Source: an uncultured Armatimonadetes bacterium
GTDB taxonomy: Bacteria; Armatimonadota; Fimbriimonadia; Fimbriimonadales; Fimbriimonadaceae
Assembly (NCBI GenBank): GCA_903927025.1
Contig: CAIYLG010000018.1
Span: 55,105 to 119,104 of the forward strand
Length of the DNA: 64,000 bases
Reading direction: 5' to 3'
In this document: in pieces, positions 502-62,480 of the stretch
Layout: the number at the start of each line of letters is the position of its first letter
Numbering within the stretch: position 1 is the stretch's first letter
Notes under the pieces: generated by a model
What the model saw: only the letters and a program-made list of their open reading frames with translations
What the model was told of the DNA's origin: nothing
Databases searched by the model: none
Position numbers and translations under genes: made by a program

Positions 502-679
502 TCTACGCCGAGTGCCTAGTTATCGGGAAGTCCTGGCAATTCCTTGTGGTGGTTTTGAAGTTCCTGGACTCGAAGGGGCAGCTAACTCCGCTTCGGCCAA
601 GATGTACTCCAAACCGCAGCCCCAGCTTGCGGCGTGGTTGGCATAAGCGACTTACCGGAGCGGCCTTATAATGCAGATC

Positions 680-1126
680 ATGGAAGCCCCCGCCCCACCA
701 CCAGTCATGATCCCGTCGGATTTCAAATCGGACAAGATCATCGGCGTCATCATCATGGTTCTCGGTGGGCTCTCATTCCTTACGGGAGTTATTGCCTTGT
801 TCCTGGGCTCCATGATAGCTCCCGCCATGCATGATATGCGGGCGCAAATGGCGAAGGATGCCAAACATGACCCTTCGGCATCAATGCCACTGTTTCCCTT
901 TGACACCATGTTTAGTATCATGGGATGGCTTGCGATTGCAATCGCGGTTCTTCAGATTGCCAGCGGCGTTGGTGTCTTCAAGAGCAGTAAAAAGGGTTTG
1001 ATTTTCGCCTTAGCCGTCGCGGTGTTCAGCGTATTTGCCGGCGGCTTCGGAACCATTATCGGCGTTGCAATAGGGCTATACACTATCCTGCGCCTGTGGG
1101 GCAATGTCGGCCCGAGGCCAGCGTAG
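680..1126 (+). CDS. Integral membrane protein (about 4 TM), unknown function
   Basis: Hydrophobic helices and a Pro-rich N-terminus. TATAAT at 667-672 lies 7 nt before the in-frame ATG at 680. Confidence 0.75.
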   Translation: MEAPAPPPVMIPSDFKSDKIIGVIIMVLGGLSFLTGVIALFLGSMIAPAMHDMRAQMAKDAKHDPSASMPLFPFDTMFSIMGWLAIAIAVLQIASGVGVFKSSKKGLIFALAVAVFSVFAGGFGTIIGVAIGLYTILRLWGNVGPRPA

Positions 1127-1193
1127 CAGCAGCAGTCGGATGACCTCTTATCAAAAGCGATGGATTTGATCTACTCGGCTACTCAGCCCCCAC

Positions 1194-1685
1194 CTAGGAT
1201 TCAGCAGGTTTGCGAACCGTCTTCACAAGATCTGCTTCAATATCGTGATCCTTGAGCCAATCTTTGGCAAAGTCGATATACGTTTCTTCCTCAAACTTGA
1301 ACCACCTTTCTCGAACCGGGCCAACGTCAAGGAGAGCATCCTTAAATCTGCGGAACGGTTTCGAACCCTCTAAAGCACGGAACAGGACCTCTCGGTCAGC
1401 CGCCGACTCAAGCGATTCGACGAACTCCTCCATCACTCGGTAGGCGTTTCGAGAGTCGATGCCCTCAATCGGTTCATATCGAGGATCATCGAGGAATTCA
1501 TCGATGTCGAAGTCCTCTTCAACAGCCTCACCGTCCATCATCCCATCGGAGTACAGCTTGACTCTTCCGTCTTGGCGATCAAAAAAGAAGACCAGTTCGT
1601 ACGAGTGGTCTTGAAGCGCCGTGATCAAATCATCCGCGTCAACTTGCAATCTGCTGGCTGAACTTTCTTTGTCGGTCATCTCCAC
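1194..1685 (-). CDS. UPF0158 family protein
   Basis: Acidic 163-aa protein with YRVMEEFV...LFRALEGSKPFRRFKDAL...ERWFKFEEE, typical of UPF0158. TAAGAT lies 6 nt before the GTG. Confidence 0.8.
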   Translation of the reverse strand: MEMTDKESSASRLQVDADDLITALQDHSYELVFFFDRQDGRVKLYSDGMMDGEAVEEDFDIDEFLDDPRYEPIEGIDSRNAYRVMEEFVESLESAADREVLFRALEGSKPFRRFKDALLDVGPVRERWFKFEEETYIDFAKDWLKDHDIEADLVKTVRKPAES

Positions 1686-1790
1686 CCAATGATCTTAGGC
1701 CATACCGATTGGAGATGTCCATGTGCCGGCTCTTGAGGAATGCGCGGCCGATCAAAAAGTTTATTGAACCATCAAAGAAGCTTGCGCACC

Positions 1791-2345
1791 ATGTTAAGTG
1801 TGGATGATCGCATATGGATTGAAAAGGTCGCAGCAGGCGACCCCGAGGCGATTGCCCAATTCGTCGACCGGTTCTATCCGACAGTCTTTCGGTTTCTTTG
1901 GCATTCTTGCGGTTCCAAGGAGGACGCGGAAGACCTTGCCTCACAAGCGCTCCTCAAAGCTCGATTCGACATCAAGAGATTTCGCGCAGACGGTCCACTC
2001 GCAGCATGGATGTTCAGCATCGCCAGGCGTGAGTACCTTCAGTTTCGAAGACGAAAGGCTTTAGGTTCGCTGTTCGAAGCCAAACACAGATCGGAGCCAG
2101 ACCCGACATGTAACGACGATGTCATCGTCATTCAGCAGGCGCTTGCTCGCCTGAGCCCAAATCTGAGGACGGCTTTCCTGCTGACGGAGGTAGAAGGGCT
2201 CACTACTGAAGAAGCGTCCGCCGCAATCGGCATTCCAGCTGGGACGGTCAAATCTCGATGTCACCACGCCAAAAAACGCCTGAGGGAAATCCTTGGCCCC
2301 ACTTACCCGGAGGTTTCAAACTATGTCCAACCCATCCCAGACTGA
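1791..2345 (+). CDS. ECF sigma-70 factor
   Basis: Region 2 (DAEDLASQAL, AWMFSIARR) and region 4 (ALARLSPNLRTAFLL...EASAAIGIPAGTVKSRCHHA). In-frame ATG at 1791 preferred over 1740. Confidence 0.9.
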   Translation: MLSVDDRIWIEKVAAGDPEAIAQFVDRFYPTVFRFLWHSCGSKEDAEDLASQALLKARFDIKRFRADGPLAAWMFSIARREYLQFRRRKALGSLFEAKHRSEPDPTCNDDVIVIQQALARLSPNLRTAFLLTEVEGLTTEEASAAIGIPAGTVKSRCHHAKKRLREILGPTYPEVSNYVQPIPD

Positions 2346-3510
2346 AGAGTGGGTCGTTTCTACCCTGCGCGAGGTGGAAACGACACTACCGCCAGCTGAC
2401 CTAACCTGTCGCATCGTGAAGGCTCACGACCGATTTCGACTGATGCCATGGGTCGCAGCTTCAGCAGCTGCGTCGTTCGGCGCAATCCTCGTTGCCGCCG
2501 AAATTCTTCATCCGACCACCTCACTGGCGCAAGTTGCTACTGCTCAGGCTCGACAAACCGAGTACACGCTGATCAACACGATGATCAACGGCGACGGAAC
2601 CGAATACGTGTTCACCGAGTGCCGGGATGGTTCTCGTTGGAGCATCCACTCGAAGACCCTCGTGATTAAGAACGGTGTCGCCGTGGAACCCAAACGGTTC
2701 GTTGCCGGAGCGTTCGGGTCCACAGTGATGGACGGAACCAGAACCGTACACCTTCGCAAACTTCCGGGGCTGATCAACTTCGCGGAGATCGACGATCCAA
2801 AGCCTAGGGAAGACCAATACGAGTTTGATGTCAACAGGATTCTGAGCAGAAACCACGGGTCGGTGACCAGCAGCTCTGGGATTGAGTGGCACGGGCACAC
2901 CGTTGATCGCTTCCAAGTTCACTCCACTTACATCAGTGAGGGGAAAACGAGGACGGTGGACAGAACGGTCATTGCCGACACGGTTAGTCACCTACCCTTG
3001 AGAGTCGAAGAGTATCGGGATGGAAAGTCTTCAGGAAGCTCTTGGGACTACCAATATGGTCGCCCATCTGGTGATCAGTTCAAGGCGGACTTCGACGAAG
3101 AGACAACTGTGTTCGACCTTAGAAAGCAGCGGGCCGATCTTAATCGTCGACTAACGCAGGGAGTTGTTCTGGTCGAATACGGTCGAAGTGCAGAAGTGCT
3201 GTTCCCAGCTACCAACGGACGGGTACGTCTGGTCTTCCCCGTCAAGATCGTGGGAAGCACCGTAAAGATGCAGGCGACCCTAGTCGTTAAACCTGGCCTC
3301 GGAAAACCTCAGCCTCAGGTCTACGTCATCAACGGAAAGCGTTGGCAGGTCGCGACACTCGTTTGGCCACCGTTCAACGACTTCAATAGCTTTTCTCAGT
3401 TCCAAAAAGCAGAAGTGAGCCTCAACATTGGCGATGCGCATCTCACTCATGTGCCGGTAGCTCACGTTTCCACAGCGGCAAAGCTGCTTAGCCCGTTCTC
3501 GACAAGGTGA
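2323..3510 (+). CDS. Putative membrane-anchored anti-sigma factor with a periplasmic LolA/RseB-like domain
   Basis: Overlaps the 3' end of the sigma gene; short cytoplasmic N-terminus, one TM (WVAASAAASFGAILVAA), then a beta-rich extracytoplasmic domain. Confidence 0.7.
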   Translation: MSNPSQTEEWVVSTLREVETTLPPADLTCRIVKAHDRFRLMPWVAASAAASFGAILVAAEILHPTTSLAQVATAQARQTEYTLINTMINGDGTEYVFTECRDGSRWSIHSKTLVIKNGVAVEPKRFVAGAFGSTVMDGTRTVHLRKLPGLINFAEIDDPKPREDQYEFDVNRILSRNHGSVTSSSGIEWHGHTVDRFQVHSTYISEGKTRTVDRTVIADTVSHLPLRVEEYRDGKSSGSSWDYQYGRPSGDQFKADFDEETTVFDLRKQRADLNRRLTQGVVLVEYGRSAEVLFPATNGRVRLVFPVKIVGSTVKMQATLVVKPGLGKPQPQVYVINGKRWQVATLVWPPFNDFNSFSQFQKAEVSLNIGDAHLTHVPVAHVSTAAKLLSPFSTR

Positions 3511-3540
3511 GGCCACGAAGTGTTACGCGGCCCCAATGAA

Positions 3541-3963
3541 TCAGTTGCCTTTCTTCGTCGACTTGGTCTTGGAGGCCGGCTTCTCGGCCTTTGTGAAGTT
3601 GTCGTAGTCGTCTTGCGCCTTCGTCAGGTTCTCGTCCTTTGCCAGGCACTCGTTGACCTGATCCTGTTGGTAGGCAGGCATGCTGGCCGTGACAGGGCCA
3701 GAGCAGACTTTATTTGCCCCTTCTGTCACCGTGTCCAGACGGTACTTGTAATAGGTGGTGAAGGCAAACCGATAGGCCGGATAGGCTGCAAGGACAACCG
3801 CAGCAAAAATCCCGATCCTGATGATGTTATTGGCAGCGCCGGCCATGTTGGAACGCTTGGCATCGGCTCGATGTCGAGCCTGAAGGCTCAGCGCGACACC
3901 ACATTTGTTGCAGCGAGGCGTGTGTTCAGGGTTGTTCTCCCCGCAGTTGGTGCAAATGGGCAT
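3541..3963 (-). CDS. Zinc-ribbon domain membrane protein
   Basis: Starts MPICTNCG...RCNKCG (two CxxC), then one TM and a periplasmic C-x22-C pair. TACAAT lies 5 nt before the ATG at 3963. Confidence 0.8.
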   Translation of the reverse strand: MPICTNCGENNPEHTPRCNKCGVALSLQARHRADAKRSNMAGAANNIIRIGIFAAVVLAAYPAYRFAFTTYYKYRLDTVTEGANKVCSGPVTASMPAYQQDQVNECLAKDENLTKAQDDYDNFTKAEKPASKTKSTKKGN

Positions 3964-4184
3964 GGGCCATTGTACGTTAAGGGCTGGCAATCCAGACGGC
4001 AAAATGAGCAGATCCCCCAAAACAGCGCTTGATTGCTGACGATTCATCCCGACGGCGCGCGGCCAGAACGATCTGCGACAAAACCCCAGGAGTTGCGGTT
4101 TGCATGGCGATTTGTTGCAGACTTGCGCCTAGGGGCAACGTTTCGCTCGTCTTGTCCGCAATCCTCCCAACATCCGTGAATCTC

Positions 4185-13806: not shown

Positions 13807-14034
13807 TCATCCACTCTGTTTAACCGAGGAAGCAGTTTCTCAATACGTGTCGTTATGCATTTTTATTTCTAAAAATATATACATTATATACTATAAGAAT
13901 TTACCGTTTAAATTAAGACGATGTACCGATCTTGGGCAATGAGAGGTCGCCTTAAATTATCTATTAGCATCAAAAATCCGAATTTTTATATTTGAGGTAC
14001 TAGATTTATTCACTTCTGTGGTCTATGATAAAGC

Positions 14035-14523
14035 GTGAATAAAACAACCCTCATCAAATTCTCTTTCGTCTTCGTTACCACCGCCACAATTCTGATGGCG
14101 GGCGTTCCTCAGTCCGCTATTGCGCGAGAAACAGCTACCGTACCTATCGTTAAGACCAACTCAGAAGCCAACCTCGGATCGGTAAAAGATTCGACGACAA
14201 TCCCCATCGTTGCCACTCCGACCCAGTCTGATGTCACCGCCAAGCCCGGTGGTGAGCCTTCCGACGACACCGTGACGGTAACCATCAGCGTCAACTCCGC
14301 GCCAACAACTGACACCGTCCTCACCATTGACACCAGCCACCACGACGCCCTGAGCTTCCCTGCGACTGTCACTATTCCTGCAGGCACCACTTCGATCACA
14401 ACCAGCGGTGTGATCGTGCCTGGAGATGGCAAGCACCACAAGAACGTGCGCATCTACGTGACAGGCAACGGCACCACCATCGAAACTAAGGTGAAGGTCC
14501 ACTACGTAAGCGAGCAGGACTAA
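14035..14523 (+). CDS. Small secreted protein with one Ig-like repeat
   Basis: Signal peptide, Thr-rich linker, and VTVTISVNSAP...FPATVTIPAGTTS. TATGAT lies 5 nt before the GTG. Confidence 0.8.
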   Translation: MNKTTLIKFSFVFVTTATILMAGVPQSAIARETATVPIVKTNSEANLGSVKDSTTIPIVATPTQSDVTAKPGGEPSDDTVTVTISVNSAPTTDTVLTIDTSHHDALSFPATVTIPAGTTSITTSGVIVPGDGKHHKNVRIYVTGNGTTIETKVKVHYVSEQD

Positions 14524-14554
14524 CCAACTCCAGAGAGTCTAAGATGAGGAGCAA

Positions 14555-14579
14555 GACTCCGGTCGAATAGGCCGGAGTC
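14555..14579. terminator. Intergenic stem-loop (possible terminator or stabiliser; no U-tract)
   Basis: GACTCCGGTC-GAATA-GGCCGGAGTC, a 10-bp stem with one G-U pair. Confidence 0.45.
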
Positions 14580-14593
14580 AGCTATACTCAAAC

Positions 14594-15493
14594 ATGACCC
14601 AGCGGTTGCCAGAGTGGCTAACAATCCGTCTGCCGCGCCCTGACACGATCAAAGAAGTTCAGGGAATGATGCGGGCTAAGAGCCTGCATACCGTTTGTGA
14701 AAGCGCGCGCTGTCCAAATTTGCCCGAATGCTGGAGCAAAAAGACCGCGACGTTTATGATTCTTGGAGATACCTGCACGCGAAGCTGCGGCTTCTGCGCA
14801 ATCAAAGTCGGAAAGGGACTTGAACTCAACCCTGATGAGCCGGCTGATATTGCTCAAGTAGCAACGGATCTTGGTCTTAAGCACATCGTTGTGACCTCAG
14901 TGGCACGAGACGACCTCGCTGACGAGGGCTCAACCCAGTTTGCAGAAACAATTCAAGCGCTCCACAAGTCAAACCCTTTAGCGATTGTCGAAGTTTTAAC
15001 ACCCGACTTCAAAGGGAAAAAATGGTGCATTAAAATAGTCACTGATGCCCATCCAGAAATTTACAACCACAATATTGAGACGATAGAGCGCCTCCACACT
15101 GTGGTGCGTCCCCAAGCCAAATATGAGCGCACCCTTAGTGTCCTCCGAACGGTGAAGGAGCTTGATCCGACGATCTACACCAAGTCGGGGATCATGCTTG
15201 GACTTGGAGAGACCGAAGCGGAAGTCATCAAGACGCTTAAAGACTTGCGCGACGTCGGTGTTGACGCTGTGACAATTGGCCAGTATCTGCGCCCAACAAT
15301 GCGTCACCTTCCGGTGAACGAGTTCATCCATCCGAGCGTATTCAAACAATACGAGCAGATCGGCGAGGAGTTGGGCTTTGCATTCGTTGCAAGCGGTCCG
15401 TTCATTCGAAGCTCCTACAACGCAATTGAATTCAGCAAGAAGGTCATGGCAGAGCGTGTGGCAAGTCTTGACGCTCAACAGACTTCAACCTAG
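14594..15493 (+). CDS. lipA: Lipoyl synthase
   Basis: CESARCPNLPEC (CX4CX5C), CTRSCGFC (radical SAM CX3CX2C) and C-terminal RSSY. TATACT lies 5 nt before the ATG. Confidence 0.97.
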   Translation: MTQRLPEWLTIRLPRPDTIKEVQGMMRAKSLHTVCESARCPNLPECWSKKTATFMILGDTCTRSCGFCAIKVGKGLELNPDEPADIAQVATDLGLKHIVVTSVARDDLADEGSTQFAETIQALHKSNPLAIVEVLTPDFKGKKWCIKIVTDAHPEIYNHNIETIERLHTVVRPQAKYERTLSVLRTVKELDPTIYTKSGIMLGLGETEAEVIKTLKDLRDVGVDAVTIGQYLRPTMRHLPVNEFIHPSVFKQYEQIGEELGFAFVASGPFIRSSYNAIEFSKKVMAERVASLDAQQTST

Positions 15494-28790: not shown

Positions 28791-28881
28791 CCATCGCCCC
28801 CTGTCAGCGAATCTACGACTCGCGGTTTAGCAATGATAGCCAGTATCGGCAAATGTCACCTGTGAAACCTTAAGGATTATT

Positions 28882-28897
28882 TGGAATGATCGTTCCA
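28882..28897. promoter_or_regulatory. TetR operator, copy 1
   Basis: TGGAATGATCGTTCCA, a near-perfect palindrome just upstream of the TAGAAT -10 box of tetR. Confidence 0.75.
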
Positions 28898-28919
28898 CTA
28901 ACCGAGTAGAATCGTTTCG

Positions 28920-29516
28920 GTGGGAAGGCACAAGCAATTCAACGAGGATGAGGTTTTACGCGCGGCGACACGCGTCTTCGTGGAGAAAGGGTTTGAAGCC
29001 ACTTCGATTCAAGACCTCATCGATGCGATGGGAATCAATCGGGCCAGCCTCTACGACACCTTTGGTGACAAGGAGACCCTGTTTTTGGCTGTTCTCGATC
29101 GATATGATGATGCCGCCTACGCCGATCTGGCAGAGTGCCTTGCCTGTTATCCATCCAAGTTGGATGGAATTCGGGCGTGGTTTTACAGGGTGGTTGAGCA
29201 AGGCTCAATCTACAAACACCCGGGATGCCTGATGGTGAATTCAACGGTCGAGCGAGCCATGCGCGATGAAGACTGTGCCGCCCGCTCCTCGCGAAACTTC
29301 CGAAGAAGTGAGGAAGCGTACTACGGAGCTCTCCTTGACGCTCAGCAGAATGGAGAGCTTTCTGCGGACCGAAACCTGCGTGCCCTCGCCCGGTTTCTGG
29401 CAGGTGCCATTCGCGGGATCCGCGTTTCTGCCAAAGCCACCGGGGACTACCAGACGCTCAAGGACATTGCTGATATTGCTTTAAGCCAGCTCGATTGCCG
29501 ACATGATAATAAGTAG
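28920..29516 (+). CDS. TetR/AcrR family regulator (NemR/ComR-like)
   Basis: GRHKQFNEDEVL...F.EKGFEATSIQDL...GINRASLYDTFGDK, and GCLMVNS. TAGAAT lies 7 nt before the GTG. Confidence 0.93.
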   Translation: MGRHKQFNEDEVLRAATRVFVEKGFEATSIQDLIDAMGINRASLYDTFGDKETLFLAVLDRYDDAAYADLAECLACYPSKLDGIRAWFYRVVEQGSIYKHPGCLMVNSTVERAMRDEDCAARSSRNFRRSEEAYYGALLDAQQNGELSADRNLRALARFLAGAIRGIRVSAKATGDYQTLKDIADIALSQLDCRHDNK

Positions 29517-38692: not shown

Positions 38693-38753
38693 AACTCCGT
38701 ATGCAAGTGACATCCGTGCTCAATCAGGGGGGCAGAGATGATAATATGCGCCC

Positions 38754-39782
38754 ATGCGTGTTGGGTATGCACTTCTAGTTATTTCGTTGGCTGGCCTCTG
38801 TGGGGCTGCGGCAATTCCTGCCAAACAGGATGAGCCAAAGGCGGTGGATATGTTCCGAAACATCACCGTCATGAAAGAGGACAAGGCCAAGGACATCATC
38901 CCCTCGATGCAGTTCATGTGCGCTTCACTCAAAGTGGACTGTGAGTTCTGTCACACCGGAGACCGCTCCAGTGATGAGAAGAAGGCCAAAGTTACCACCC
39001 GTGAAATGATCGTGATGCAGCGTGAGATCAACGCAAAGAACTTCAACGGTCGCAACCAGGTCACTTGCGCAACCTGTCACGGAGGCCGCGTTCGCCCCGT
39101 AAACCTTCCGCCCGTCGAGGGTGTCGAGGTTCGGGCACGCCGAAGCCCCGATGTGAAGCCAGATGCAGTACTTGCCGCATACGGCAAGGCCGTTGGTGCA
39201 GATCCTGCCCATCCAATTGTCGCGATCACGTACAAGGGGACGTCTGGAGCGGCAAAGACCCCAGTCGAGACCGTTTACTCCGGGACGAAGTTTGTCGTAA
39301 CCACCAAGGTAGGCACCGGCGAAATGAAGCAGGGCTTCAACGGCTCCTCCGCTTGGTTCACCAGGGAGAAGGGCATCCAACACATTCCGATGCAGTTTGC
39401 GGCGTCCTTCATCAACCAGAAGCAGATCTTCCTGGGTCCAGACACCTTGCCGAAGCTGACCAATCTCGGTGGAGCAACCGCCAAGGTGAACGGAAAGGAC
39501 ATGCTGGTAGTGAACGGCACCCTTGCTGATGCATCCCGAGCAAGCCTCTACTTTGATAAGGAGACCGGACTGCTGAGCCGCGTGACGATGAGCTACCCAA
39601 CCGTACTCGGCAACATCGCGCAGATCAACGACTACTCCGACTACAAGAAGGTCAAGGGTGTGATGCTGCCGATGACGATCGCCAACCACTCCTCCGAGGG
39701 CAATGATCTCTTCCACTATCGATCCGTCAAGATCGAAGAGAAGATCGCCCCGACGGCATTCGATCCTCCTGCCAGTAAGTAA
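38754..39782 (+). CDS. Secreted diheme c-type cytochrome (PufC/RC-cytochrome-like N-domain) fused to a LolA-like beta domain
   Basis: Signal peptide; CEFCH and CATCH; Met-containing helices SMQFM and REMIVM precede the hemes. TAATAT lies 6 nt before the ATG. Confidence 0.8.
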   Translation: MRVGYALLVISLAGLCGAAAIPAKQDEPKAVDMFRNITVMKEDKAKDIIPSMQFMCASLKVDCEFCHTGDRSSDEKKAKVTTREMIVMQREINAKNFNGRNQVTCATCHGGRVRPVNLPPVEGVEVRARRSPDVKPDAVLAAYGKAVGADPAHPIVAITYKGTSGAAKTPVETVYSGTKFVVTTKVGTGEMKQGFNGSSAWFTREKGIQHIPMQFAASFINQKQIFLGPDTLPKLTNLGGATAKVNGKDMLVVNGTLADASRASLYFDKETGLLSRVTMSYPTVLGNIAQINDYSDYKKVKGVMLPMTIANHSSEGNDLFHYRSVKIEEKIAPTAFDPPASK

Positions 39783-39839: not shown

Positions 39840-40436
39840 CTACTCCACGAGGATCCCAAAGCATCGGGCGAAGTGCACCGCCTGCTTGAGATCGATATGG
39901 GCTCCCTTGAGATCCGCCGTTTTCAGGTCGACCTGTTCGAGGCTCGCGCCGAGCAGGTTGACCTTGCGAAGCTTTGCGTTCTGCACGGAAGCGCCATCCA
40001 AAATGCACCTTCGAAGATCCGCCCCATCCAACGTCGCTCCGGCAAAGTCAGCACCCTTGAACCGAATATCGGCCAACTGGAGACCTTTCAGCAACTGAAA
40101 GCGAAGGTTCACAAACGACCAATCCCCCGACTTCACGTCGATGCCGGTGAGGTTGCATCCTTCAAACGAGGATCCGATCATCCGACAGTTTTCGAACTCG
40201 GATGCAAACAGGTCCGCGTTCTCAAAGGTGCAGTTCAGAAACGCACTCGATTTATGGGCAGAGGAACCTAGCCGGGCACCGGTGAAATCACAGTCCTCAA
40301 ACTCGCAGGATTTGGTTCGCAGTTCCACCAATGTGGCCCCGCGAAAATCGCAACCGACAAAACGGCACTGTTCCCATGGCACATCCAAACTCCAATTGGA
40401 GTCTGCCGTACACGCCTCGAATGTTTGCTCCTGCAC
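39840..40436 (-). CDS. Pentapeptide repeat protein
   Basis: Continuous [A/C][D/N][F/L]xx repeats (CDFRG, CDFTG, ADFAG, ADLRR). TAACCT lies 6 nt before the GTG. Confidence 0.93.
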   Translation of the reverse strand: MQEQTFEACTADSNWSLDVPWEQCRFVGCDFRGATLVELRTKSCEFEDCDFTGARLGSSAHKSSAFLNCTFENADLFASEFENCRMIGSSFEGCNLTGIDVKSGDWSFVNLRFQLLKGLQLADIRFKGADFAGATLDGADLRRCILDGASVQNAKLRKVNLLGASLEQVDLKTADLKGAHIDLKQAVHFARCFGILVE

Positions 40437-40465
40437 TGCAGAAGGTTACTCTTAGGCCCGGGCTG

Positions 40466-50692: not shown

Positions 50693-50763
50693 AAGTTTTA
50701 CTTCTATTTAGCATAACTATTATGAATATTTTGCTAGCTTTCAATGCACGTAGAATGCACGGT

Positions 50764-51525
50764 GTGAAGCCAAATTCCAGTCAAGAACAGTTCGACCGGC
50801 AGTCCAAGCTCTATGCCGAGAGCCAAATCCATCTCAAAGGGCCCAGCCTCCCCGTATTGGTGGAATATGCGATGCCGCAACACACGGACCTGGTGTTAGA
50901 CATCGCCACAGGTACCGGGAGCACCGCCCTGGTGGTCGCGCCTCATGTCGATCGAGTAGTGGGAATAGATATAGCGGAGCAGATGCTTGCACAAGCTCGA
51001 ACCCTCGCGGCTGATGCCAATCTTTCCAACATCGAGTTTCAGACGGGTTCTGCTGAGCAGATTCCGTTTTCCGATCACAGGTTCGACTTGGTCACGTCGA
51101 GACACGCCCCCCATCACTTCCTGAATGTCGCAGCGTTTTTGGCCGAAGTCAGAAGAGTGCTTAAGCCAGGTGGGAGGTTTGTGATGGTCGACCAGATCTC
51201 TCCAAACCCCGAAGTCCAGAGGTGGACAAACACGTGGGAACGAACGCGAGACCCATCTCACTTTTATCAGCGCACCGTAGAGGAGTGGATGGACCTTGCC
51301 GAAAATGCCGGATTGTCATGGGTTCGGCACACGCAGGTTCCTTACCGCATGGAGTTTGCCTGGTGGGTACGACAAGCAGGTGTCAGCGCTGAAGGGATTG
51401 AGGCACTTAAAGCCCATGCTCGGAATGCTTCGCAGGAGGAAAAGAATGCAGCGCTCCTAGAGTTTGAGGATGGTGAGGTGACCGCCTTTACCGACCAGAT
51501 GCTTGTCGTAAGAATGGAACCTTAG
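50764..51525 (+). CDS. Class I SAM-dependent methyltransferase (YcgJ/YafE-like)
   Basis: VLDIATGTG, GSAEQIPF, FDLVTSRHAPHHF, RVLKPGG. TAGAAT lies 7 nt before the in-frame GTG at 50764. Confidence 0.9.
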   Translation: MKPNSSQEQFDRQSKLYAESQIHLKGPSLPVLVEYAMPQHTDLVLDIATGTGSTALVVAPHVDRVVGIDIAEQMLAQARTLAADANLSNIEFQTGSAEQIPFSDHRFDLVTSRHAPHHFLNVAAFLAEVRRVLKPGGRFVMVDQISPNPEVQRWTNTWERTRDPSHFYQRTVEEWMDLAENAGLSWVRHTQVPYRMEFAWWVRQAGVSAEGIEALKAHARNASQEEKNAALLEFEDGEVTAFTDQMLVVRMEP

Positions 51526-52450: not shown

Positions 52451-53128
52451 CTATTTCTTTACGAGTGGTTTGAGATACGCCCCGGGGTTCTTCTTGACCG
52501 TGCCAATGCATCCTGGGCAACAAAAGTATATCGTTCGTCCGTCAATCACTGCAGAGACCGATTCCACAATGGGTTCTCCAGTCACTGGGCACGTCTTGAT
52601 TCCATCACCCTTGCCGACGAATTTGCTCAAGTTCGACACTGACTGGTTCGGAATAGCGTGCATTTTGTGCATCCCCGCCATCCCGTCTTTGACAAAGCCA
52701 TTGACCGCAATTGCGTGGGCTTGAATGAGTGCGACCACTTGAGCGTCTTGGGAGGTCTCGGTGACAACGACCCCATTTTTGGTGTTAGCAATGATCAGCT
52801 TCACTTTATCGTGATGCTCAAAGACGGCAGCAAAGAGGGGGTCCCACTCGCGTATCGGTCTGCCATCTTTAAGCCGCATCTGCATGGCGGCGACATGCTC
52901 TTTGATCAGCTTTGCCACATAAGAATCCGTGCTCTCAGTTACAGAGATGATGCCATTCTTCGTGTTCTTCGTCGTTCGCTTGACCTTGGACGAATCACCC
53001 AGCAAGGCATGGATTTTCGCCATATCCGCGGCATGCCCAGTGTCCATGTCGGCCTGCATGCCTTGCGAAATTGTAAGCGCCGCTACGGAAAAGACGAGGC
53101 CAGATGCAAGAACGCGCTGAAGAAACAT
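52451..53128 (-). CDS. Secreted protein with a duplicated His-bearing repeat and a C-terminal YHS/TRASH domain
   Basis: Signal peptide; NTKNG.....S.D..V..LI..H occurs twice; CPVTGE...IYFCCPGC. Confidence 0.8.
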   Translation of the reverse strand: MFLQRVLASGLVFSVAALTISQGMQADMDTGHAADMAKIHALLGDSSKVKRTTKNTKNGIISVTESTDSYVAKLIKEHVAAMQMRLKDGRPIREWDPLFAAVFEHHDKVKLIIANTKNGVVVTETSQDAQVVALIQAHAIAVNGFVKDGMAGMHKMHAIPNQSVSNLSKFVGKGDGIKTCPVTGEPIVESVSAVIDGRTIYFCCPGCIGTVKKNPGAYLKPLVKK

Positions 53129-53153
53129 GACTTGGCCGCAGGTTACCTGGAGG

Positions 53154-54884: not shown

Positions 54885-54885
54885 T

Positions 54886-55272: not shown

Positions 55273-55646
55273 TTCTTGCCTCCGATGGGATCGAGACTTT
55301 GAGCTTCGACGCATGTTCCAAGAACCGCATCGGATTGGGCCTGGAGATAGTCACGCATGACCTGAATGGCTTCGCGCCGAACGGAACACACCATAAACTT
55401 GCCGTTCTTTTCGGCATTGATCAGCCCAGCCAGTCGCAACTCTTTGAGATGGAACGACACCGTCGAGCTGAATTGCTCACTACCGGTCACGTGGCAACAG
55501 ACTGCCCCAACCGTAACTCCCTGCACAGGTCGAACGTCTCCCAGGTCATCGAGGGCAACGGGGCAGCAATTTGAGCAAAGGAATTCGAAGATGCGTGCCC
55601 TCGTCGGGTCTCCCAGTGCTTTAAACATCAGGACGGGCGATTCCAT
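55269..55646 (-). CDS. arsR: ArsR/SmtB family repressor
   Basis: FKALGDPTRARI, STVSFHLKELRLAGLI; CSNCC and VCCH. TATGCT lies 6 nt before the ATG. Confidence 0.88.
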   Translation of the reverse strand: MESPVLMFKALGDPTRARIFEFLCSNCCPVALDDLGDVRPVQGVTVGAVCCHVTGSEQFSSTVSFHLKELRLAGLINAEKNGKFMVCSVRREAIQVMRDYLQAQSDAVLGTCVEAQSLDPIGGKK

Positions 55647-55659
55647 ACCTGGAGCATAC

Positions 55660-55691
55660 CACTACATATCGAGATATCTAGATATATAGTG
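55660..55691. promoter_or_regulatory. ArsR operator
   Basis: 32-bp imperfect palindrome CACTACATATCGAGATATCTAGATATATAGTG (28/32 symmetric); core ATCGA-N6-TAGAT resembles the ArsR/SmtB ATCAA-N6-TTGAT box; abuts the -10 box. Confidence 0.8.
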
Positions 55692-55776
55692 GAGATTCGG
55701 GGTGCATTACCTTTGCTGGTTGTCAGTAGAAAGCAAAGTCGCCAATTCTACGCACAGAGCGTGATATGATTCGCGC

Positions 55777-56046
55777 GTGAACAAGACGTTTTCTGCGACC
55801 CTCCTGAAGGACAAGGATAAAGAAAAGGGTGGTTGGACCTACATCATCTGGTCTGATTCAGCAGCGTTCTTCGGAACAAAGAAGCCTGTTAAGGTGAAGG
55901 GAACGATCGACGGGGTCGAGTTCCAAACCACATTTCTTCCTGTGGGAGATGGAACTCACCTGTTGCCGGTTAAGGCTGCCATCCTGGCAGCAGTCAAGAA
56001 GCAACAAGGGGATGAAGTTGTTGTGTGCCTGACGGACCGATTGTAG
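55777..56046 (+). CDS. DUF1905 family protein
   Basis: GGWTYI, VKVKGTIDGVEFQTTFLPVGDGTHLLPVKAAI. TATGAT lies 6 nt before the GTG. Confidence 0.85.
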   Translation: MNKTFSATLLKDKDKEKGGWTYIIWSDSAAFFGTKKPVKVKGTIDGVEFQTTFLPVGDGTHLLPVKAAILAAVKKQQGDEVVVCLTDRL

Positions 56047-56135: not shown

Positions 56136-56678
56136 CTAAACCGTTTGCAGCCGTTCATGCGGCTCCGGAGGCAACTGGACTGTAATGAGGTCACCCGCCC
56201 TCACGATTCCCCCAACAAGGACGATCGACATGATCCCAGCCTTGCGGATCATTTCTCCGTTCTCATCCTTGTCCAAGGTCGCCGCCATCAATCCCTTCTG
56301 GAACTTGTCGATCTGGCTGCATGGATTTCTTAGGCCGGTAACTTCCAGGACTGCTTCCTCTCCAACCCGAAGGAGTGTCCCCTTCGGCAAGACAAGGAGA
56401 TCTATTCCGACCGTAGTGATGTTCTCTCCCATATTGCCAGGGCGAACCTCAAAGCCTTGCTTCGCAACTTCTCCAAAAAGCTCGCTGTGAATCAGGTGCA
56501 CTTGCCTGAGGTTCGGCATGTCAGGAAACTTTGCCGCACGAGAGCGGTGCTTCACCGCCTGTCCACAGTGGGCATCCCCTTGGACCCCCAGCCCCTTAAG
56601 CAACACGATTTCCGAAACCGTCTCTTTGCTGAACGAGTGGGTGGGGCTCGCGCTAACCGCCAAAACTTTGGGCTGCAT
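56136..56678 (-). CDS. MOSC domain protein (YiiM-like)
   Basis: GLGVQGDAH, RQVHLI, PGNMGENITT, LEVTGLRNPCSQI, G.VRAGD. TATATT lies 7 nt before the ATG at 56678. Confidence 0.9.
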   Translation of the reverse strand: MQPKVLAVSASPTHSFSKETVSEIVLLKGLGVQGDAHCGQAVKHRSRAAKFPDMPNLRQVHLIHSELFGEVAKQGFEVRPGNMGENITTVGIDLLVLPKGTLLRVGEEAVLEVTGLRNPCSQIDKFQKGLMAATLDKDENGEMIRKAGIMSIVLVGGIVRAGDLITVQLPPEPHERLQTV

Positions 56679-56865
56679 CAAATGGAATATATCCAACGAC
56701 GAACCTTGGCGGAACCCATGAATGACTTGGCCCTAGTCATATTTCGCGTATTGCAACTGACGGTCTCAACTACTTCCGCTTAGCTATTAGAATTATCAGG
56801 TGGCGGCAGGCATCTGTTGTGAAGGCCACAACTTGGCAATGCTTCGATGTACCGGTAACAAGAGA

Positions 56866-57420: not shown

Positions 57421-57429
57421 AGTTCGAAA

Positions 57430-59730
57430 CTATATTCCTACTTGAAGCCGAACCGGGGCAGTGAGCGCTGGGTCGCCGGTGGCGGCGAGTCCGTCAACGT
57501 AGGTTGAGAGCGAGGGTTTCACTTTGAATTCAGTTCGCTTGCCATCCCGGATCACGATCACTGGCTTCTTGTAGTCAACCAGCGTGGGTGACAGCCACAA
57601 GGCAATCTCTCCCTGATTGGCCGTGGTTATCGTGATCGTGTTCTTCTCAACTTTCGCGTCGATGCGCCCCTTCGCTTGAGGGGTGAGGGATTCCAGCCAG
57701 TAGAAGCGGTGGAGCACCGAGTCTGTCTGGGCCCAGATCACCCGGGTTAGCTCTGCATTTCGGGTGTATTTAAGGAACTCAGCCGTCTTGTTGGCTTCAA
57801 AGTCATTGATCAGATGGCTATGCCCGGGAACGACCTCTACGCCGCCATCAAAGCCACCAAATTCGGATTTCCACTTATCCCATTCTTTTTGGAAGGCGCG
57901 ACACCGGTCCACTCGCCCGTAGTCATTGTCTCGCTCGCCCACCGACCAGGTGAACCTCACATTTCGCAGGTTGATCCCTTCAGTTTCACCGTCTGTTCCA
58001 GCGGAAGCGGCGGGATGAAGGGCGGCAAACCGATAGGGGATTTTTGGCCCGATCACGAACGTTCCGTATCCGCCATGGGATGCGCCACACGCGTAGACTC
58101 GGCTCGGATCCACCTCGGCAAACTTGACGAACTGAAGGATGAGGCGCTCGATCAACGGACAAATCGCATCGTCGTAGAATCCGTTCCAGGCGTCGTTCGG
58201 AGCACGCAGAGCCAGGTAGACATAGCCGCCGGCTTCGGGGTGATCCTTGTAGTACGTGCTAAACATGTACTGCCACTCGCCATCGTTCACCTCCTTTGGC
58301 GCCCCACCGCCGCCGTGCATGGCGATGACCAATCCCCAACCGTTCTTGGGCTTTGTTCCTACCGTTCGCCAGAGGTAAGGGCTGGTTCGGTCGGTCGTGC
58401 TGACGGTTTTGGCGTCGAACTCCTTTTTGAGCTCGGGATTGGGGGCTGACTTGAACGCCTCCCAAGCGGCCTGGACGCTGCCGTCTGTGAACGGCAGTCC
58501 CGCGATCAGCTTTGACGCCGCATCCTGCTTTGCTTTATCGGTGCCGAACCTATCTGCGAACAGCGAAGCGAGGGCAGATTCGGACACCTTATCAAGATCG
58601 ATCCGAACAACCGTGTCGGCGTCCACCTTGGCGAGTGCGGTTGCCGTCTTGCCGTTGTAATCGGCGGACACGAAGTACTCGCCCCCTTTGGGGACAGGAG
58701 CGCTGAGGTGGAGGTTGATGTCCGCCTGAGGGCCTTTGCTTTGGCCCATTAGACACTGATCGCCCGTCGCAGCATTGAAGGCGATGACATCCGCGATGAC
58801 CCGCTCGCCCCCCTTCTTCACCTCGACCATAAGCCGCGGAGATAGATCCAGAAGCCGCTTGTTGTAGCGCTTGGTCACGTTCTCAGCTGGCACTTTTTGT
58901 TCTGGAGCCCAGACCATAGGGAAATAGGAGCCCTGATTGCGATAAGTGACCGCCCAAATCGAATTCTCTGGTTTATCCGCCTCTGCACGTCCAGCCTCAT
59001 CTGCAAACCAAGAATGATCGAGTCCAGCATCGTCCGGCTCGGCCGCGCCCACGAAATGCCAGGCACCCTTGTCCCAAACTTCAACCCAGGTATGGTTGCC
59101 GCCCCGACCTGGCCAAGAGTGAATGCCCGCCACTCTCGATGGCACACCAACGGCGCGCAACGCATCCACAAGCATGATGGAGAGCCCGGTGCAGGTTGCC
59201 ATCCCCTGGGAGATCGTTTCCGGCGGACTTTGATCTGTCCGCAATCGTCGGGTGTTGTACGTAACTTTGTAGTCTTTGAAAAGCGCCCGATTGATGGCCA
59301 TAGCCGCCTCACCAGGCGATTTAGAGTTGGCAACTAACGGTAGGTAACGGCTCTGAAACTCAGCCCGCATTGATTGCCGAGGTTCAGTCACGCTCGCGTA
59401 GGGGAGGACAGAATCCAAGAAGATATCCTGCGGAATTGCACGTGCCCAACTCATCTTTCTTCGCACGTCATAGGAGAGATGAATCGACTCGCGCAGTTTG
59501 TCGGTTGACAGTGACTCAAGATCGCTAAGAGGCATGTAGGTGAGCAGGTACTCGGCCCCCTTATGCTCGTCAGCCGGCAGAGTCTTCAAGAACTTCTCCC
59601 ACTCCTTGATTCGACTTGGAGCACGGTTCAGAGATGATTGCAGACTCAGTTTCTGATCAGGCACTGGCCGGATCCCATTCGAAGTTCCTAGCGTCAAGGC
59701 AATTAGCAACAGGGAACTTACAGGCAACAT
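57430..59730 (-). CDS. Secreted transglutaminase-like domain + alpha/beta-hydrolase fusion
   Basis: TGase triad ATCTGLS / NHTWVEVWD; hydrolase motifs IAMHGGG, GASHGG and VPGHSH. Confidence 0.85.
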   Translation of the reverse strand: MLPVSSLLLIALTLGTSNGIRPVPDQKLSLQSSLNRAPSRIKEWEKFLKTLPADEHKGAEYLLTYMPLSDLESLSTDKLRESIHLSYDVRRKMSWARAIPQDIFLDSVLPYASVTEPRQSMRAEFQSRYLPLVANSKSPGEAAMAINRALFKDYKVTYNTRRLRTDQSPPETISQGMATCTGLSIMLVDALRAVGVPSRVAGIHSWPGRGGNHTWVEVWDKGAWHFVGAAEPDDAGLDHSWFADEAGRAEADKPENSIWAVTYRNQGSYFPMVWAPEQKVPAENVTKRYNKRLLDLSPRLMVEVKKGGERVIADVIAFNAATGDQCLMGQSKGPQADINLHLSAPVPKGGEYFVSADYNGKTATALAKVDADTVVRIDLDKVSESALASLFADRFGTDKAKQDAASKLIAGLPFTDGSVQAAWEAFKSAPNPELKKEFDAKTVSTTDRTSPYLWRTVGTKPKNGWGLVIAMHGGGGAPKEVNDGEWQYMFSTYYKDHPEAGGYVYLALRAPNDAWNGFYDDAICPLIERLILQFVKFAEVDPSRVYACGASHGGYGTFVIGPKIPYRFAALHPAASAGTDGETEGINLRNVRFTWSVGERDNDYGRVDRCRAFQKEWDKWKSEFGGFDGGVEVVPGHSHLINDFEANKTAEFLKYTRNAELTRVIWAQTDSVLHRFYWLESLTPQAKGRIDAKVEKNTITITTANQGEIALWLSPTLVDYKKPVIVIRDGKRTEFKVKPSLSTYVDGLAATGDPALTAPVRLQVGI

Positions 59731-59805
59731 CGTACAGCGAATATTACCGTCGCCAATGCCTGGAGAACGGAAGAGGCTGTCGTGTCCGGGCTCCCGATTC
59801 CCAAG

Positions 59806-60036: not shown

Positions 60037-60638
60037 ATTGACTCCTGGGTTGGGAAATATCCGCGCTGTTCTGCGATCTCCCACAGAGAAACCTGAAGCA
60101 TCCGTCTTGCGCGATGAAGACGAGAACGTACGGTGCCTATCGGAACCTCTAATGTTTCCGCGCATTCTGCGTATGACATCTCGGTAATAAAGTGGAGGAC
60201 CGCAACCTCTTGGTATTCAAGAGGCAGTCGGCCCATCGCATCGGAAACCATCTGGTAATCGGCTTGGCCCAAAATGACCGCCACCGGATCGCCATTCATC
60301 GTCAGGCCAAGTCTCCTGGCCTGACGATAGAGATAAGACTCGGGAGCATCAACCAGTGCGACAGAGGGCTGTCGCGCTTCACGCTGTTTGGTTCTATAGA
60401 ACCGATGCAACAGAATTTTGAAAAACCAAGCCTTGAAGTTTGAGTCACGCGCAAACATGTGAAACGAGCGAAACGCGATGACGCTTGCGTCCTGCACAAG
60501 ATCCGTCCCAGCATCACGGTCCTTTGTAAGCCGGACCGCATAGCGGAATGCCAGCGGAAGAATCGGCCGGAGAAGAGCCTCGAAGTCGCTACGGTCAGTG
60601 ACGGCCAGGCTAACCGTGGGGCCAATCTCCGACCTCAT
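60033..60638 (-). CDS. ECF sigma-70 factor (SigR/SigH-like)
   Basis: DLVQDASVIAF, NFKAWFFKIL, LPLEYQEV, SYAECAETLEVPIGTVRSRLHRAR. Confidence 0.92.
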   Translation of the reverse strand: MRSEIGPTVSLAVTDRSDFEALLRPILPLAFRYAVRLTKDRDAGTDLVQDASVIAFRSFHMFARDSNFKAWFFKILLHRFYRTKQREARQPSVALVDAPESYLYRQARRLGLTMNGDPVAVILGQADYQMVSDAMGRLPLEYQEVAVLHFITEMSYAECAETLEVPIGTVRSRLHRARRMLQVSLWEIAEQRGYFPTQESI

Positions 60639-61195
60639 TTTTCTGCAAGTAGTTCGTCTAGAACCTCTGCAGTTTTCTTTTCACCACCAGCCCCCTGCCA
60701 ATTCAGTTCACCGAACCAATGGTAGCGAACGATGCCGTTGCGATCAAGGATATAGAGTGAGGGCCACATGTTTACATGCCACCTTTTCCAATTAGCGCTG
60801 TCATTATCGACGAGAACCGGATAATCGATGTTGTCTTCCTTTACGTGCTTGGCGACCTCGTCCACTTCACGTTCGATCTTCATTTCCGGCGTGTGAACCG
60901 AGATCATCTCGACTCCATGGGCTCGATACTTCTTCAGAAGTCGTTGGTACGCAGCAAAATTGTGCTGGCAGTTTTCACACGCAAAGGTCCAAAACGCCAC
61001 GAGCGTTGGCTTGCCTCGCCGAGACTCTAGACTCATCGGCTTGCCATCCGTAGTGTTGATCCATGGCCCTCCGGTCAATTCAGGTGCCTGATTTGGATCC
61101 TTCTTCGTCTGCAGCGAACGAGCGCTGGCAATCCCGTAGGCCGTCGCCAGAACAAGAATCGACCCTACAGCCAGTGTTAAAAGCTTTTGTTTCAT
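60635..61195 (-). CDS. Exported thioredoxin-like redoxin (DipZ C-terminal/TlpA-like)
   Basis: Signal/anchor; APELTGGPWIN, FWTFACENC, VHTPE, WPSLYILD, WFGE; ATGA overlap with the sigma gene. Confidence 0.88.
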   Translation of the reverse strand: MKQKLLTLAVGSILVLATAYGIASARSLQTKKDPNQAPELTGGPWINTTDGKPMSLESRRGKPTLVAFWTFACENCQHNFAAYQRLLKKYRAHGVEMISVHTPEMKIEREVDEVAKHVKEDNIDYPVLVDNDSANWKRWHVNMWPSLYILDRNGIVRYHWFGELNWQGAGGEKKTAEVLDELLAEK

Positions 61196-61215
61196 GGTTG
61201 GTGTTGGATGTAAAG

Positions 61216-61239
61216 GACCGCATGGCCGCTTAAGGTTCC
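61216..61239 (-). promoter_or_regulatory. Candidate ECF promoter for the redoxin-sigma-anti-sigma operon
   Basis: Minus strand reads GGAAC-N16-GTC, ending 20 nt upstream of the redoxin ATG; this matches the common ECF -35/-10 layout. Confidence 0.5.
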
Positions 61240-61418
61240 CAGAGATTTGTGGCCTCAAGCATTTTCTTCCGACTTCGCTGATGCTGATGGTTTCCTCAAA
61301 CGATCAGAAGGCAATTCGGGCTACTCCGGAGGTCAATACGACCTCTCGTCTGAAAGACTTGGATTGGCCCCTGAATCCATCAAAGAATTTAGTCAGAGTC
61401 TGGTTCAGGAGCGCCACT

Positions 61419-62345
61419 TTAATGTGCCATGGCGACGCTCACCTGCTTTCTATAGGTGCCAGGCCGACAATTGAATATTCGCTTAAAGGTAGCGCTGAAC
61501 GCGCTTTCGGATTCGTAGCCGACCGCGCTAGCGACATCGGCCACGTTCAGCTGGTCGGACCTCAGCAGTTCGGTTGCCATCTGCATTCTCCAGTTCGTGA
61601 GGTACTCCAGCGGTGTCACGCCCACGTTAGTCTTGAACGCCAGGCAGAATCCGGAGCGAGACATGGAGCAGACGTTCGCCAACTCCTCGATTGACCACGG
61701 ATATTGATATCGAAAATGCATCGCTTCTAAAGCTTTTGCGAGCTTGGGATCCGAGAGGGCAGTCGCCCAATTTTTGTCGTTCTTAGCTGTCCCTAAATAG
61801 ACTCGCAACGCCTGTGAGAGCATGATTGGGGCCAGGTTTCGCAGGATCAGCGTACGCCCGGGCCCAGTTCCTGCAAATTCAGATCGAAACTGTTCGATGG
61901 ACCAACGCATAACGCTGGCCTCCTGGATCTCCTTTTGGAGATGAATAAGGGGAGGCATCTGGTTAAAGACGATTTGCGGCAAGTGACTGCTGACCTCGAA
62001 ATGAACGCCGATCAAGAGCAGATCTCCGCCACCATTTTGCTCAATGGATCCTCCCGACTTTGCGTACTGCGAAGCGAGCGAAGCATAAGGAATCGGCAAA
62101 ACAGACAGGTCGGTTCCCATGACAAATGGCTCCCCTTTCGTCATCAGAGTGCAGTCTCCCGCTTTTAAATGGTGAGTTGTTCCAGAAGCGGTCATTCGGA
62201 TCCAGCATTCACCGTTTAGGATCAATTGGAGTTTAAAGCCCTGGTACGCGGGGAACGAAACGGCCCAATTCCCGCCGACGTCGGTCACCCCAGAGACGAA
62301 TGAAATCACCTTCATTTGTTCAAGCGCACTCGATAGGACATCCAC
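61419..62345 (-). CDS. AraC family regulator with cupin sensor domain
   Basis: WSIEELANVCSMSRSGF, PLEYLTNWRM, VGYESESAFSATFKR. TATATT lies 6 nt before the GTG at 62345 (MDVLSSAL). Confidence 0.9.
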   Translation of the reverse strand: MDVLSSALEQMKVISFVSGVTDVGGNWAVSFPAYQGFKLQLILNGECWIRMTASGTTHHLKAGDCTLMTKGEPFVMGTDLSVLPIPYASLASQYAKSGGSIEQNGGGDLLLIGVHFEVSSHLPQIVFNQMPPLIHLQKEIQEASVMRWSIEQFRSEFAGTGPGRTLILRNLAPIMLSQALRVYLGTAKNDKNWATALSDPKLAKALEAMHFRYQYPWSIEELANVCSMSRSGFCLAFKTNVGVTPLEYLTNWRMQMATELLRSDQLNVADVASAVGYESESAFSATFKRIFNCRPGTYRKQVSVAMAH

Positions 62346-62480
62346 TACTGGAATATACAGCATAAACAGTGGACTTTTCAGCATTAAGAGTCCAAAAATT
62401 TCCTTGTACAGTATTGCCATGGATGCAACAAGGCTGATACGGCCTCCATCCAGCAAGCAAATCAGAACGAGGAAATCACC

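Follow-up and report, generated by a model that had tools for sequence, protein, structure and literature searches.

In the Deinococcota (Deinococcus radiodurans, D. deserti and Thermus thermophilus), about one third of genes have a "−10-motif adjacent to ORFs" (open reading frames), a TANNNT hexamer a few base pairs before the start codon; the −35 element is dispensable there, a Shine-Dalgarno (SD)-type GGAG precedes other genes, and the motif has been used to correct start annotations (PMC12340547, which cites de Groot et al. 2014 among its sources for leaderless genes). We describe a comparable arrangement in a 64,000-nucleotide (nt) stretch of DNA, hereafter the window, from an uncultured bacterium of the class Fimbriimonadia (C18:55105-119104; assembly GCA_903927025.1, 5.25 Mb in 66 contigs, 55.5% GC). 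A sequence-only reading of the window had listed 13 genes with a TAnnnT hexamer 5 to 7 nt before the start codon and no SD between, and had taken these boxes for leaderless-type promoters. That interpretation is supported by positional enrichment across the genome, by the same boxes before tRNA genes and by conservation in relatives, and we put at roughly 85% the probability that the boxes are −10 elements giving leaderless or near-leaderless mRNAs of the Deinococcota/Actinobacteria type. The boxes are placed as in Deinococcota, and the fraction is of the same order (∼23% of genes here); what differs is the GG 5′ of the box, the A/C at hexamer position 5 and a much weaker overall use of SD sequences. 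The Deinococcota case is experimentally validated, whereas that of Fimbriimonadia is predicted from sequence.

Two genome surveys provide further points of comparison. According to the main text of the GeneMarkS-2 paper (PMC6028130), group C genomes have a Pribnow-like motif 6 to 8 nt from first-in-operon starts and a ribosome-binding site before other genes; its members are Actinobacteria (90%), Deinococcus-Thermus (97%) and a few Proteobacteria and Firmicutes, and 25 to 50% of operons are predicted to be leaderless. Armatimonadetes are unnamed in that main text, an assignment to group C in its species table being possible. In the part of their survey of 953 bacterial genomes that concerns leaderless genes, Zheng et al. 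(2011, PMC3160421) used a TA-like signal ∼10 nt upstream of the translation start as a proxy, the same criterion as here, and found such genes abundant in Actinobacteria and Deinococcus-Thermus. The figures to set beside those of group C are ∼29% of non-operon-internal genes and roughly 40 to 45% of strong boxes at the leaderless position. To our knowledge, the 953-genome survey predates any Armatimonadota genome. Our literature search found no paper linking Fimbriimonadia or Fimbriimonas to leaderless genes, and co-mentions with Armatimonadetes or Armatimonadota were incidental (PMC10783764; others as judged from title or abstract); this agrees with the earlier remark that the lineage may be poorly documented in this respect. 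The mechanism is a familiar one that apparently has not been described from this lineage.

A GG-TAnnnT promoter element at a fixed distance from start codons

Genes were called across the whole genome by a home-made procedure that takes the first ATG/GTG in dicodon-scored ORFs (∼4040 to 4050 genes). Relative to these starts, TAnnnT shows a sharp peak at −12, equivalent to a 6-nt spacer, where 6.6% of genes carry it, with a shoulder from −15 to −11; the background is ∼1% per position farther upstream and 0.2 to 0.6% before internal in-frame ATG/GTG codons. The peak stands at 7.0% for ATG starts and 9.9% for GTG starts, but TTG starts have none genome-wide, and second or later start candidates of an ORF show almost no enrichment. 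It also depends on gene context: a box precedes 15 to 16% of genes that are divergent from or spaced 10 to 99 nt from their neighbor, versus 3 to 4% at control offsets, and only 3.4% of those whose upstream neighbor is less than 10 nt away. The sequence-only reading had named a lack of genome-wide positional enrichment of TAnnnT as grounds for refutation; instead, enrichment is strong, position specific and limited to ATG/GTG starts of genes that are not operon internal. Start calling by coding potential was dropped; with it, the −12 peak was weaker (5.3% versus 6.6%).

Roughly one in two −12 boxes starts with TAA or TAG and so also closes the ORF. We rejected a stop codon or ORF boundary artifact because the non-stop hexamer TA[CT]NNT is enriched 5.7-fold at −12 (98 versus a background of 17) and the TGANNT control is not (21 versus 18). 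The spacing can also be seen without gene calls: GGTANNNT-N(s)-ATG occurs 67, 65, 54 and 51 times at s = 6, 7, 8 and 9, and mostly 20 to 35 times elsewhere in s = 0 to 20 (up to 39 at s = 10 to 15). The same pipeline found 20 instances of GGTANNNT at −15 to −12 in 400 kb from a different family of the same order, and none at −20 to −9 in 400 kb of an Armatimonadota genome of equal GC content from another class.

A de novo scan of 4-mers returned GGTA at −14 as the strongest upstream positional word (z = 25), outranking every SD word (GGAG at −12, z = 9). A secondary in-frame GGTA peak at −17 (z = 12.5) corresponds genome-wide to a box 9 nt before ATG (TA offset −15) and may reflect 3-nt leaders or a noncanonical start codon one codon upstream. 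Expectation-maximization (EM) under a zero-or-one-occurrence-per-sequence (ZOOPS) model, applied to positions −26 to −3 of 3133 non-operon-internal genes, converged on nGGTAnaMTn with λ = 0.288; λ fell to 0.000 and 0.003 when the searched region was shifted by −40 and −25, and was 0.016 for operon-internal genes (those less than 10 nt behind an upstream neighbor). The position prior places 35% at TA = −12 and about 75% over −12 to −15. In the resulting position weight matrix (PWM), A has a frequency of 0.93 at position 2 and T of 0.88 at position 6, and the posterior exceeds 0.5 for ∼930 of 4042 genes (24% of ATG starts, 21% of GTG starts). Peak hexamers are also informative outside the letters used to select them: positions 3 and 4 favor A, position 5 favors A or C, and G makes up 49% at either of the two bases that abut the hexamer on its 5′ side, compared to 26 to 30% in control hexamers.

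Genes for untranslated RNAs carry the same element. TAnnnT lies at −22 to −15 from the mature 5′ end in 31 of 48 tRNA and transfer-messenger RNA (tmRNA) genes (control-window mean, ∼2; P ∼3e-31), and GG precedes the box in 23 of the 31. Since these genes are not translated, we identify the box as the general −10 element of promoters and not as a signal to the ribosome. The 5′ leaders implied for RNase P are very short, ∼4 to 10 nt (for example, C2:204977-205050 and C14:197446-197521), and the −35 regions of tRNA and tmRNA genes are weak, none agreeing with TTGACA at more than 4 of 6 positions. The element is also strand specific: where the intergenic DNA upstream of a gene is 150 nt or longer, strong boxes at TA offsets −16 to −11 number 83 on the sense strand and 4 on the antisense strand. 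The excess of sense boxes over the whole of −150 to −17 is ∼100, so that roughly 40 to 45% of recognizable promoters lie at the leaderless position.

The extended −10 (TGn) of Escherichia coli and the gnTAnnnTng −10 of Corynebacterium have a G at −14 that compensates for a poor or absent −35. Here, GG at −14/−13 abuts the TA, in place of T(−15)G(−14)n. TG at −15/−14 occurs in 12.9% of cases versus 7.7% of controls, which we do not regard as an extended −10 of this kind; individual sites with TGn exist, for example in the cytochrome c orthologues described below.

Boxed starts in the window and in related genomes

All 13 hexamers and their start codons are present where the sequence-only reading had placed them, and their spacers lack GGAG, GAGG and AGGA, leaving no SD between box and start. 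The spacer is 5 nt at 3963, 14035 and 14594; 6 nt at 1685, 38754, 40436, 55646, 55777 and 62345; and 7 nt at 680, 28920, 50764 and 56678. Start codons were counted as seven ATG and six GTG, and at nine of the 13 no other ATG/GTG comes between the start and the in-frame stop upstream of it. Each site is given below as box-spacer-start codon, with the position of the start and, where available, the PWM posterior; the last four lines are sites that the earlier list omits.

667..682, plus strand: TATAAT-N7-ATG, start 680; DUF4064-like membrane protein, second candidate in its ORF; posterior 0.87
1683..1697, minus strand: TAAGAT-N6-GTG, start 1685; UPF0158 protein, first start in its ORF; posterior 0.90
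3961..3974, minus strand: TACAAT-N5-ATG, start 3963; small zinc-ribbon-like protein, MPICTNC...
14024..14037, plus strand: TATGAT-N5-GTG, start 14035; secreted or membrane protein, first start in its ORF; posterior 0.45
14583..14596, plus strand: gcTATACT-N5-ATG, start 14594; lipoyl synthase LipA (Pfam Radical_SAM, LIAS_N)
28907..28922, plus strand: TAGAAT-N7-GTG, start 28920; TetR-family regulator, TetR_N from residue 13; posterior 0.95
38742..38756, plus strand: TAATAT-N6-ATG, start 38754; multihaem cytochrome c; posterior 0.87
40434..40448, minus strand: TAACCT-N6-GTG, start 40436; pentapeptide-repeat protein
50751..50766, plus strand: TAGAAT-N7-GTG, start 50764; S-adenosylmethionine methyltransferase, second candidate in its ORF; posterior 0.92
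55644..55660, minus strand: ggTATGCT-N6-ATG, start 55646; ArsR-type repressor, first gene of an ars operon; posterior 0.97
55765..55779, plus strand: TATGAT-N6-GTG, start 55777; DUF1905 protein, divergent from 55646, first start in its ORF; posterior 0.91
56676..56691, minus strand: TATATT-N7-ATG, start 56678; MOSC-domain protein, first ATG/GTG in its ORF; posterior 0.83
62343..62357, minus strand: tgTATATT-N6-GTG, start 62345; AraC-family regulator with a Cupin_6 domain
56788..56802, plus strand: TAGAAT-N6-GTG, start 56800; divergent from 56678, first ATG/GTG in its ORF; posterior 0.86
53126..53147, minus strand: ggTAACCT-N11-ATG, start 53128; short-leader candidate, implied leader ∼4 to 5 nt; posterior 0.73
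59728..59748, minus strand: ggTAATAT-N10-ATG, start 59730; short-leader candidate, transglutaminase-like protein; posterior 0.82
63972..63989, plus strand: TAGAAT-N9-ATG, start 63987; short-leader candidate; posterior 0.93

TAnnnT at −13 to −11 precedes 11 of the 51 first-in-ORF ATG/GTG starts of the window, where ∼1.4 would be expected (P = 1.3e-7) at the chance rate of 2.8% found at shifted offsets in the genome; the leaderless-type genes would number 13 to 17 of 51. Two back-to-back divergent pairs have leaderless-type boxes on both partners: 55646/55777, with 130 nt between them, and 56678/56800, with 121 nt. TTG occurs at 56696, upstream of the start at 56678.

The window's phosphoenolpyruvate (PEP) carboxylase (35897-38692) is 76 to 66% identical to proteins from metagenome-assembled genomes (MAGs) labelled Armatimonadetes or Fimbriimonadales, an order that NCBI taxonomy places in class Fimbriimonadia, phylum Armatimonadota, kingdom Bacillati. 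The enzymes of two genomes assigned to the same genus, G009 and G052, are only 51 to 52% identical to it, compared to 71 to 76% for those of MAGs L001-L003; either the genus is very broad or the gene has a separate history. Because of this low identity (∼51%), orthologues were sought in closer genomes: the 13 N-termini were joined into one chimeric query, which was searched against the six that contain L001-L005 and L032, and the DNA upstream of each match was read.

At lipA, the columns GCTATAnT are the only ones invariant upstream of the gene among seven genomes (alignment A1); the spacer (5 to 6 nt) is variable, as is all of the sequence 5′ of the box, and the codons directly after the ATG differ synonymously at their third positions. 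In G121, the end of an intrinsic terminator (a hairpin with a T-run) lies 8 nt upstream of the lipA box. The window has an 8-bp GC-rich hairpin without a T-run in the same place as this classical terminator, GACTCCGG(n9)CCGGAGTC (14546-14582, plus strand); it ends at 14581, 2 nt before the −10 hexamer, and abuts the "gc" of gcTATACT.

Conservation extends to other sites. The cytochrome c gene has a box at N6 to N7 before ATG in five of five genomes (the window and four orthologous loci), as TG-n-TAAGAT or TAACCT, with unrelated flanks. For arsR, nine homologous loci in relatives have (GG)TAnnnT 5 to 7 nt before ATG or GTG. Orthologues of the pentapeptide-repeat gene at 40436 have GGTATTGT-N6-GTG (L003/L105), GGTAACTT-N6-GTG (L002/L109) or TAAACT-N7-ATG (L097), and three orthologues of 14035 have TATAGT, TATACT or TATATT at N6 before GTG (N5 in the window). 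One of two orthologues of 1685 agrees (G121, TAACGT-N6-ATG), and paralogues of 50764 in relatives have GGTAnnCT-N6-ATG. ATG and GTG thus swap between orthologues while the box-to-start distance is retained. N-termini such as MPIC..., MTQRLPEW and MR..Y are conserved among orthologues, and Pfam domains begin 1 to 13 residues into several of the proteins; the UPF0158 alignment of 1685 begins at residue 14, and DUF1905 covers residues 5 to 83 of the 55777 protein (model positions 1 to 79 of 81).

Enrichment is almost nil at second or later candidates genome-wide, so the four sites that are later candidates of their ORFs (680, 3963, 50764 and 62345) need other support, which is present for 3963 and 62345 and lacking for 680 and 50764. 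Orthologues of 3963 share its MPIC start, with TACAAT-N5-ATG in G121 and TAGACT-N8-ATG in G122, which supports preferring 3963 as the probable start over 4047 of the longer ORF. Likewise, Cupin_6 takes up residues 2 to 184 of the 62345 protein (model positions 1 to 182 of 183) and an orthologue in G124 has TATAAT-N7-ATG two codons upstream, supporting 62345 as a better candidate than the long-ORF ATG at 62555. These two of the start corrections proposed by the sequence-only reading are thus supported; that at 50764 is ambiguous, since the ATG at 50722 has a TAGCAT-N7 box of its own (50709-50714, posterior 0.38). At 680, where an alternative in-frame ATG lies inside the box at 671, the start is plausible.

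Palindromes adjoin two of the regulatory genes. One of them, TGGAATGATCGTTCCA (28880-28906, plus strand), immediately precedes the −10 box of the TetR-family gene (start 28920) and is probably an autoregulatory TetR operator in the −35 position, serving a divergent or adjacent AcrB-type efflux operon; related palindromes (GGAACGATCATTCC) are retained at the TetR loci of two relatives, where the box lies 9 to 10 nt before ATG/GTG. The arsR box has AT-rich palindromes a short way upstream of it, ATATCTAGATAT in the window (55660-55700, minus strand) and TCTAGAAGTATAGAAATG or CTACATTTATAGAAATG in the relatives (homologous loci L089-L103); they look like ArsR operators overlapping a leaderless promoter.

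Proposed leaderless initiation and competing readings

We propose that the TAnnnT boxes act as −10 elements of a housekeeping σ70 type, with the consensus nGG-TA-n-a-(A/C)-T, G at −14/−13 and no detectable −35 requirement. As a 6-nt spacer is the canonical distance between −10 and +1, +1 would fall on the purine of the start codon; RNA polymerase would start at, or within ∼3 nt of, the A/G of ATG/GTG. The resulting mRNAs would have a leader of 0 to 3 nt with no room for an SD and would need leaderless-type initiation, in which the ribosome and initiator tRNA recognize a 5′-terminal AUG/GUG. About 20 to 30% of non-operon-internal genes, roughly 830 to 930 of ∼4040 genes, would be of this type. 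The data show the motif, its spacing, its gene context, its promoter nature and its conservation; where exactly transcription starts (the transcription start site, TSS) and how translation is initiated are what we infer in this proposal.

Several points weigh against it. TSS positions come from promoter geometry, and gene starts come from our home-made calls. No −35 element is enriched: best matches to TTGACA are distributed exactly as they are for control hexamers, and a classical two-hexamer −35/−10 scan misses boxed sites, including lipA and 14035. The promoters look −35 independent on this evidence, and their strength and the role of GG are accordingly assumed. The shoulder of boxes 8 to 11 nt from the start implies leaders of 1 to 5 nt, which are not strictly leaderless. 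Among the listed sites, four of 13 are later start candidates, 50764 competes with 50722, and homologues of the 680 and 55777 proteins were not found in the six relatives. Some orthologues do not match well: the box is poor or displaced in the L113 orthologue of 1685 and weak in the G121 orthologue of 40436, and the G121 orthologue of 56678, sharing the same start residue, has a weaker tgCAGAAT-N7 box.

The alternative that fares best, though we consider it improbable, accepts the promoters but supposes short leaders, with TSSs a few nt upstream, or with translation beginning at a codon farther downstream and what looks like the N-terminus being 5′ untranslated region. It draws on the enrichment of boxes 8 to 11 nt from the start (TA offsets −14 to −17; GGTANNNT-N8/N9-ATG, 54 and 51), on the 9- to 10-nt spacers of the TetR-gene relatives and on the fact that TSS choice can shift by 1 to 2 nt. 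However, spacers have their mode at exactly 6 nt, which is the canonical distance from −10 to +1; in lipA, conservation of the protein, with synonymous changes, begins at the boxed ATG; and Pfam domains begin within 1 to 13 residues of several boxed starts. A leader of 1 to 5 nt would, in any case, still be too small for an SD and would call for leaderless-type translation.

Use of SD sequences bears on the second alternative. The sequence-only reading held that most internal operon genes have an SD or overlapping stop and start codons, which applies to only about half of them: 27% have an SD core and 26% overlap their neighbor by 4 nt or 1 nt. An SD core precedes 18% of first genes, and shifted controls give 11% (operon-internal genes) and 8% (first genes). 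This weak usage agrees with a report of 25% SD-led genes in Fimbriimonadia versus 70% in Chthonomonadetes (PMC10783764). The 16S gene is absent from the assembly; the 16S 3′ end, taken from five genomes of the same family, is GGATCACCTCCTTA, with the anti-SD CCTCC intact. Despite this anti-SD, roughly half of first-in-unit genes lack both a leaderless-type box and an SD core. The −11 to −4 region is mildly enriched in A across genes.

With SD use this low, some non-SD mechanism must exist, and the slight A-richness of −11 to −4 across all genes could be read as a sign of it: the TA-rich hexamer would then be a translation signal in leadered mRNAs, a non-SD A/U-rich element bound by the ribosome or ribosomal protein S1, like the group B motifs of Bacteroidetes. 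We find this very hard to credit, because the motif is nearly absent before operon-internal genes (λ of 0.016 versus 0.288) and absent before TTG starts, and GG-TAnnnT precedes 31 of 48 tRNA and tmRNA genes, which are not translated. Moreover, the motif is strand specific and shares with σ70 −10 elements their invariant A at hexamer position 2 and T at hexamer position 6, and the terminator 8 nt before the lipA box of G121 leaves the promoter no other place. Chance and selection (a loose TAnnnT, chosen starts and a count inflated by in-frame TAA/TAG) could appeal to an expected rate of ∼3% per gene, to the half of −12 boxes that begin TAA/TAG and to the four of 13 sites that are not first in their ORF, a class of candidates with virtually no enrichment, but is effectively refuted by the 5.7-fold enrichment of TA[CT]NNT and not TGANNT, the peak at N6 to N7 in the gene-call-free count, the ratio of ∼0.9 in 110 Armatimonadota genomes of other classes (see below), the missing GGTANNNT peak in the control genome of the same GC content, the window count (P = 1.3e-7) and the conservation of the box in relatives.

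Fimbriimonadia among the Armatimonadota

The spread of −10 boxes at the leaderless position was followed in 181 Armatimonadota genomes by a spacing ratio, the count of GGTANNNT-N{6,7}-ATG divided by that of GGTANNNT-N{16,17}-ATG. A reversed-pattern control proved unsuitable (132 versus 128 in the source genome itself), and the N{16,17} spacing was used instead. The ratio is 3.2 in the source genome. Within its class, which consists of a single order with four families, the median is 2.62 and 65 of 71 genomes exceed 1.5; in the other classes the median is 0.91, with 8 of 110 genomes above 1.5. Six of these eight belong to families f13 (G012, G026 and G040) and f29 (G066, G103 and G112), which have an excess of GGTANNNT-N6/7-ATG outside the class; in some it is larger than that of the source genome (473 versus 107 in G026; 213 versus 50 in G103). 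In the family of the source genome, the signal is present in 60 of 62 members. G165 and G167, strongly reduced 1.5-Mb genomes of genus g102 in that family, are without it (ratios, 0.75 and 0.89), which may be a secondary loss.

We incline, with some reserve, to the view that Fimbriimonadia are a further leaderless-rich lineage beside Actinomycetota and Deinococcota, so far undescribed, in which about a fifth to a quarter of genes would be expressed from −35-independent GG-TAnnnT promoters abutting the start, with GUG used as freely as AUG, low SD use and an intact anti-SD. TamB and AcrB homologues are encoded in the window, consistent with the earlier remark that the lineage is diderm.

The mechanism is well established elsewhere, and what is at issue is its extension to a new lineage, not a new principle. 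For annotation, tools that expect SD sequences will miscall gene starts in Fimbriimonadia MAGs (relative to the longest ORF, the start moves by 28 codons at 3963 and by 70 at 62345), and the GG-TAnnnT box can serve throughout the class as a model of promoters and start sites. If our reading is true, a Bacillati lineage of Gram-negative type, bearing lipopolysaccharide and TamB, joins the leaderless-rich bacteria. The sharp boundary within one phylum offers a comparative handle on moves to and from leaderless initiation, in which σ factor region 2.5/3.0, initiation factors IF2 and IF3, and S1 are candidates for change; the class-wide presence of the signal, its recurrence in the unrelated families f13 and f29 and its absence from two reduced genomes would then form a natural series of gains and losses in which to study leaderless evolution.

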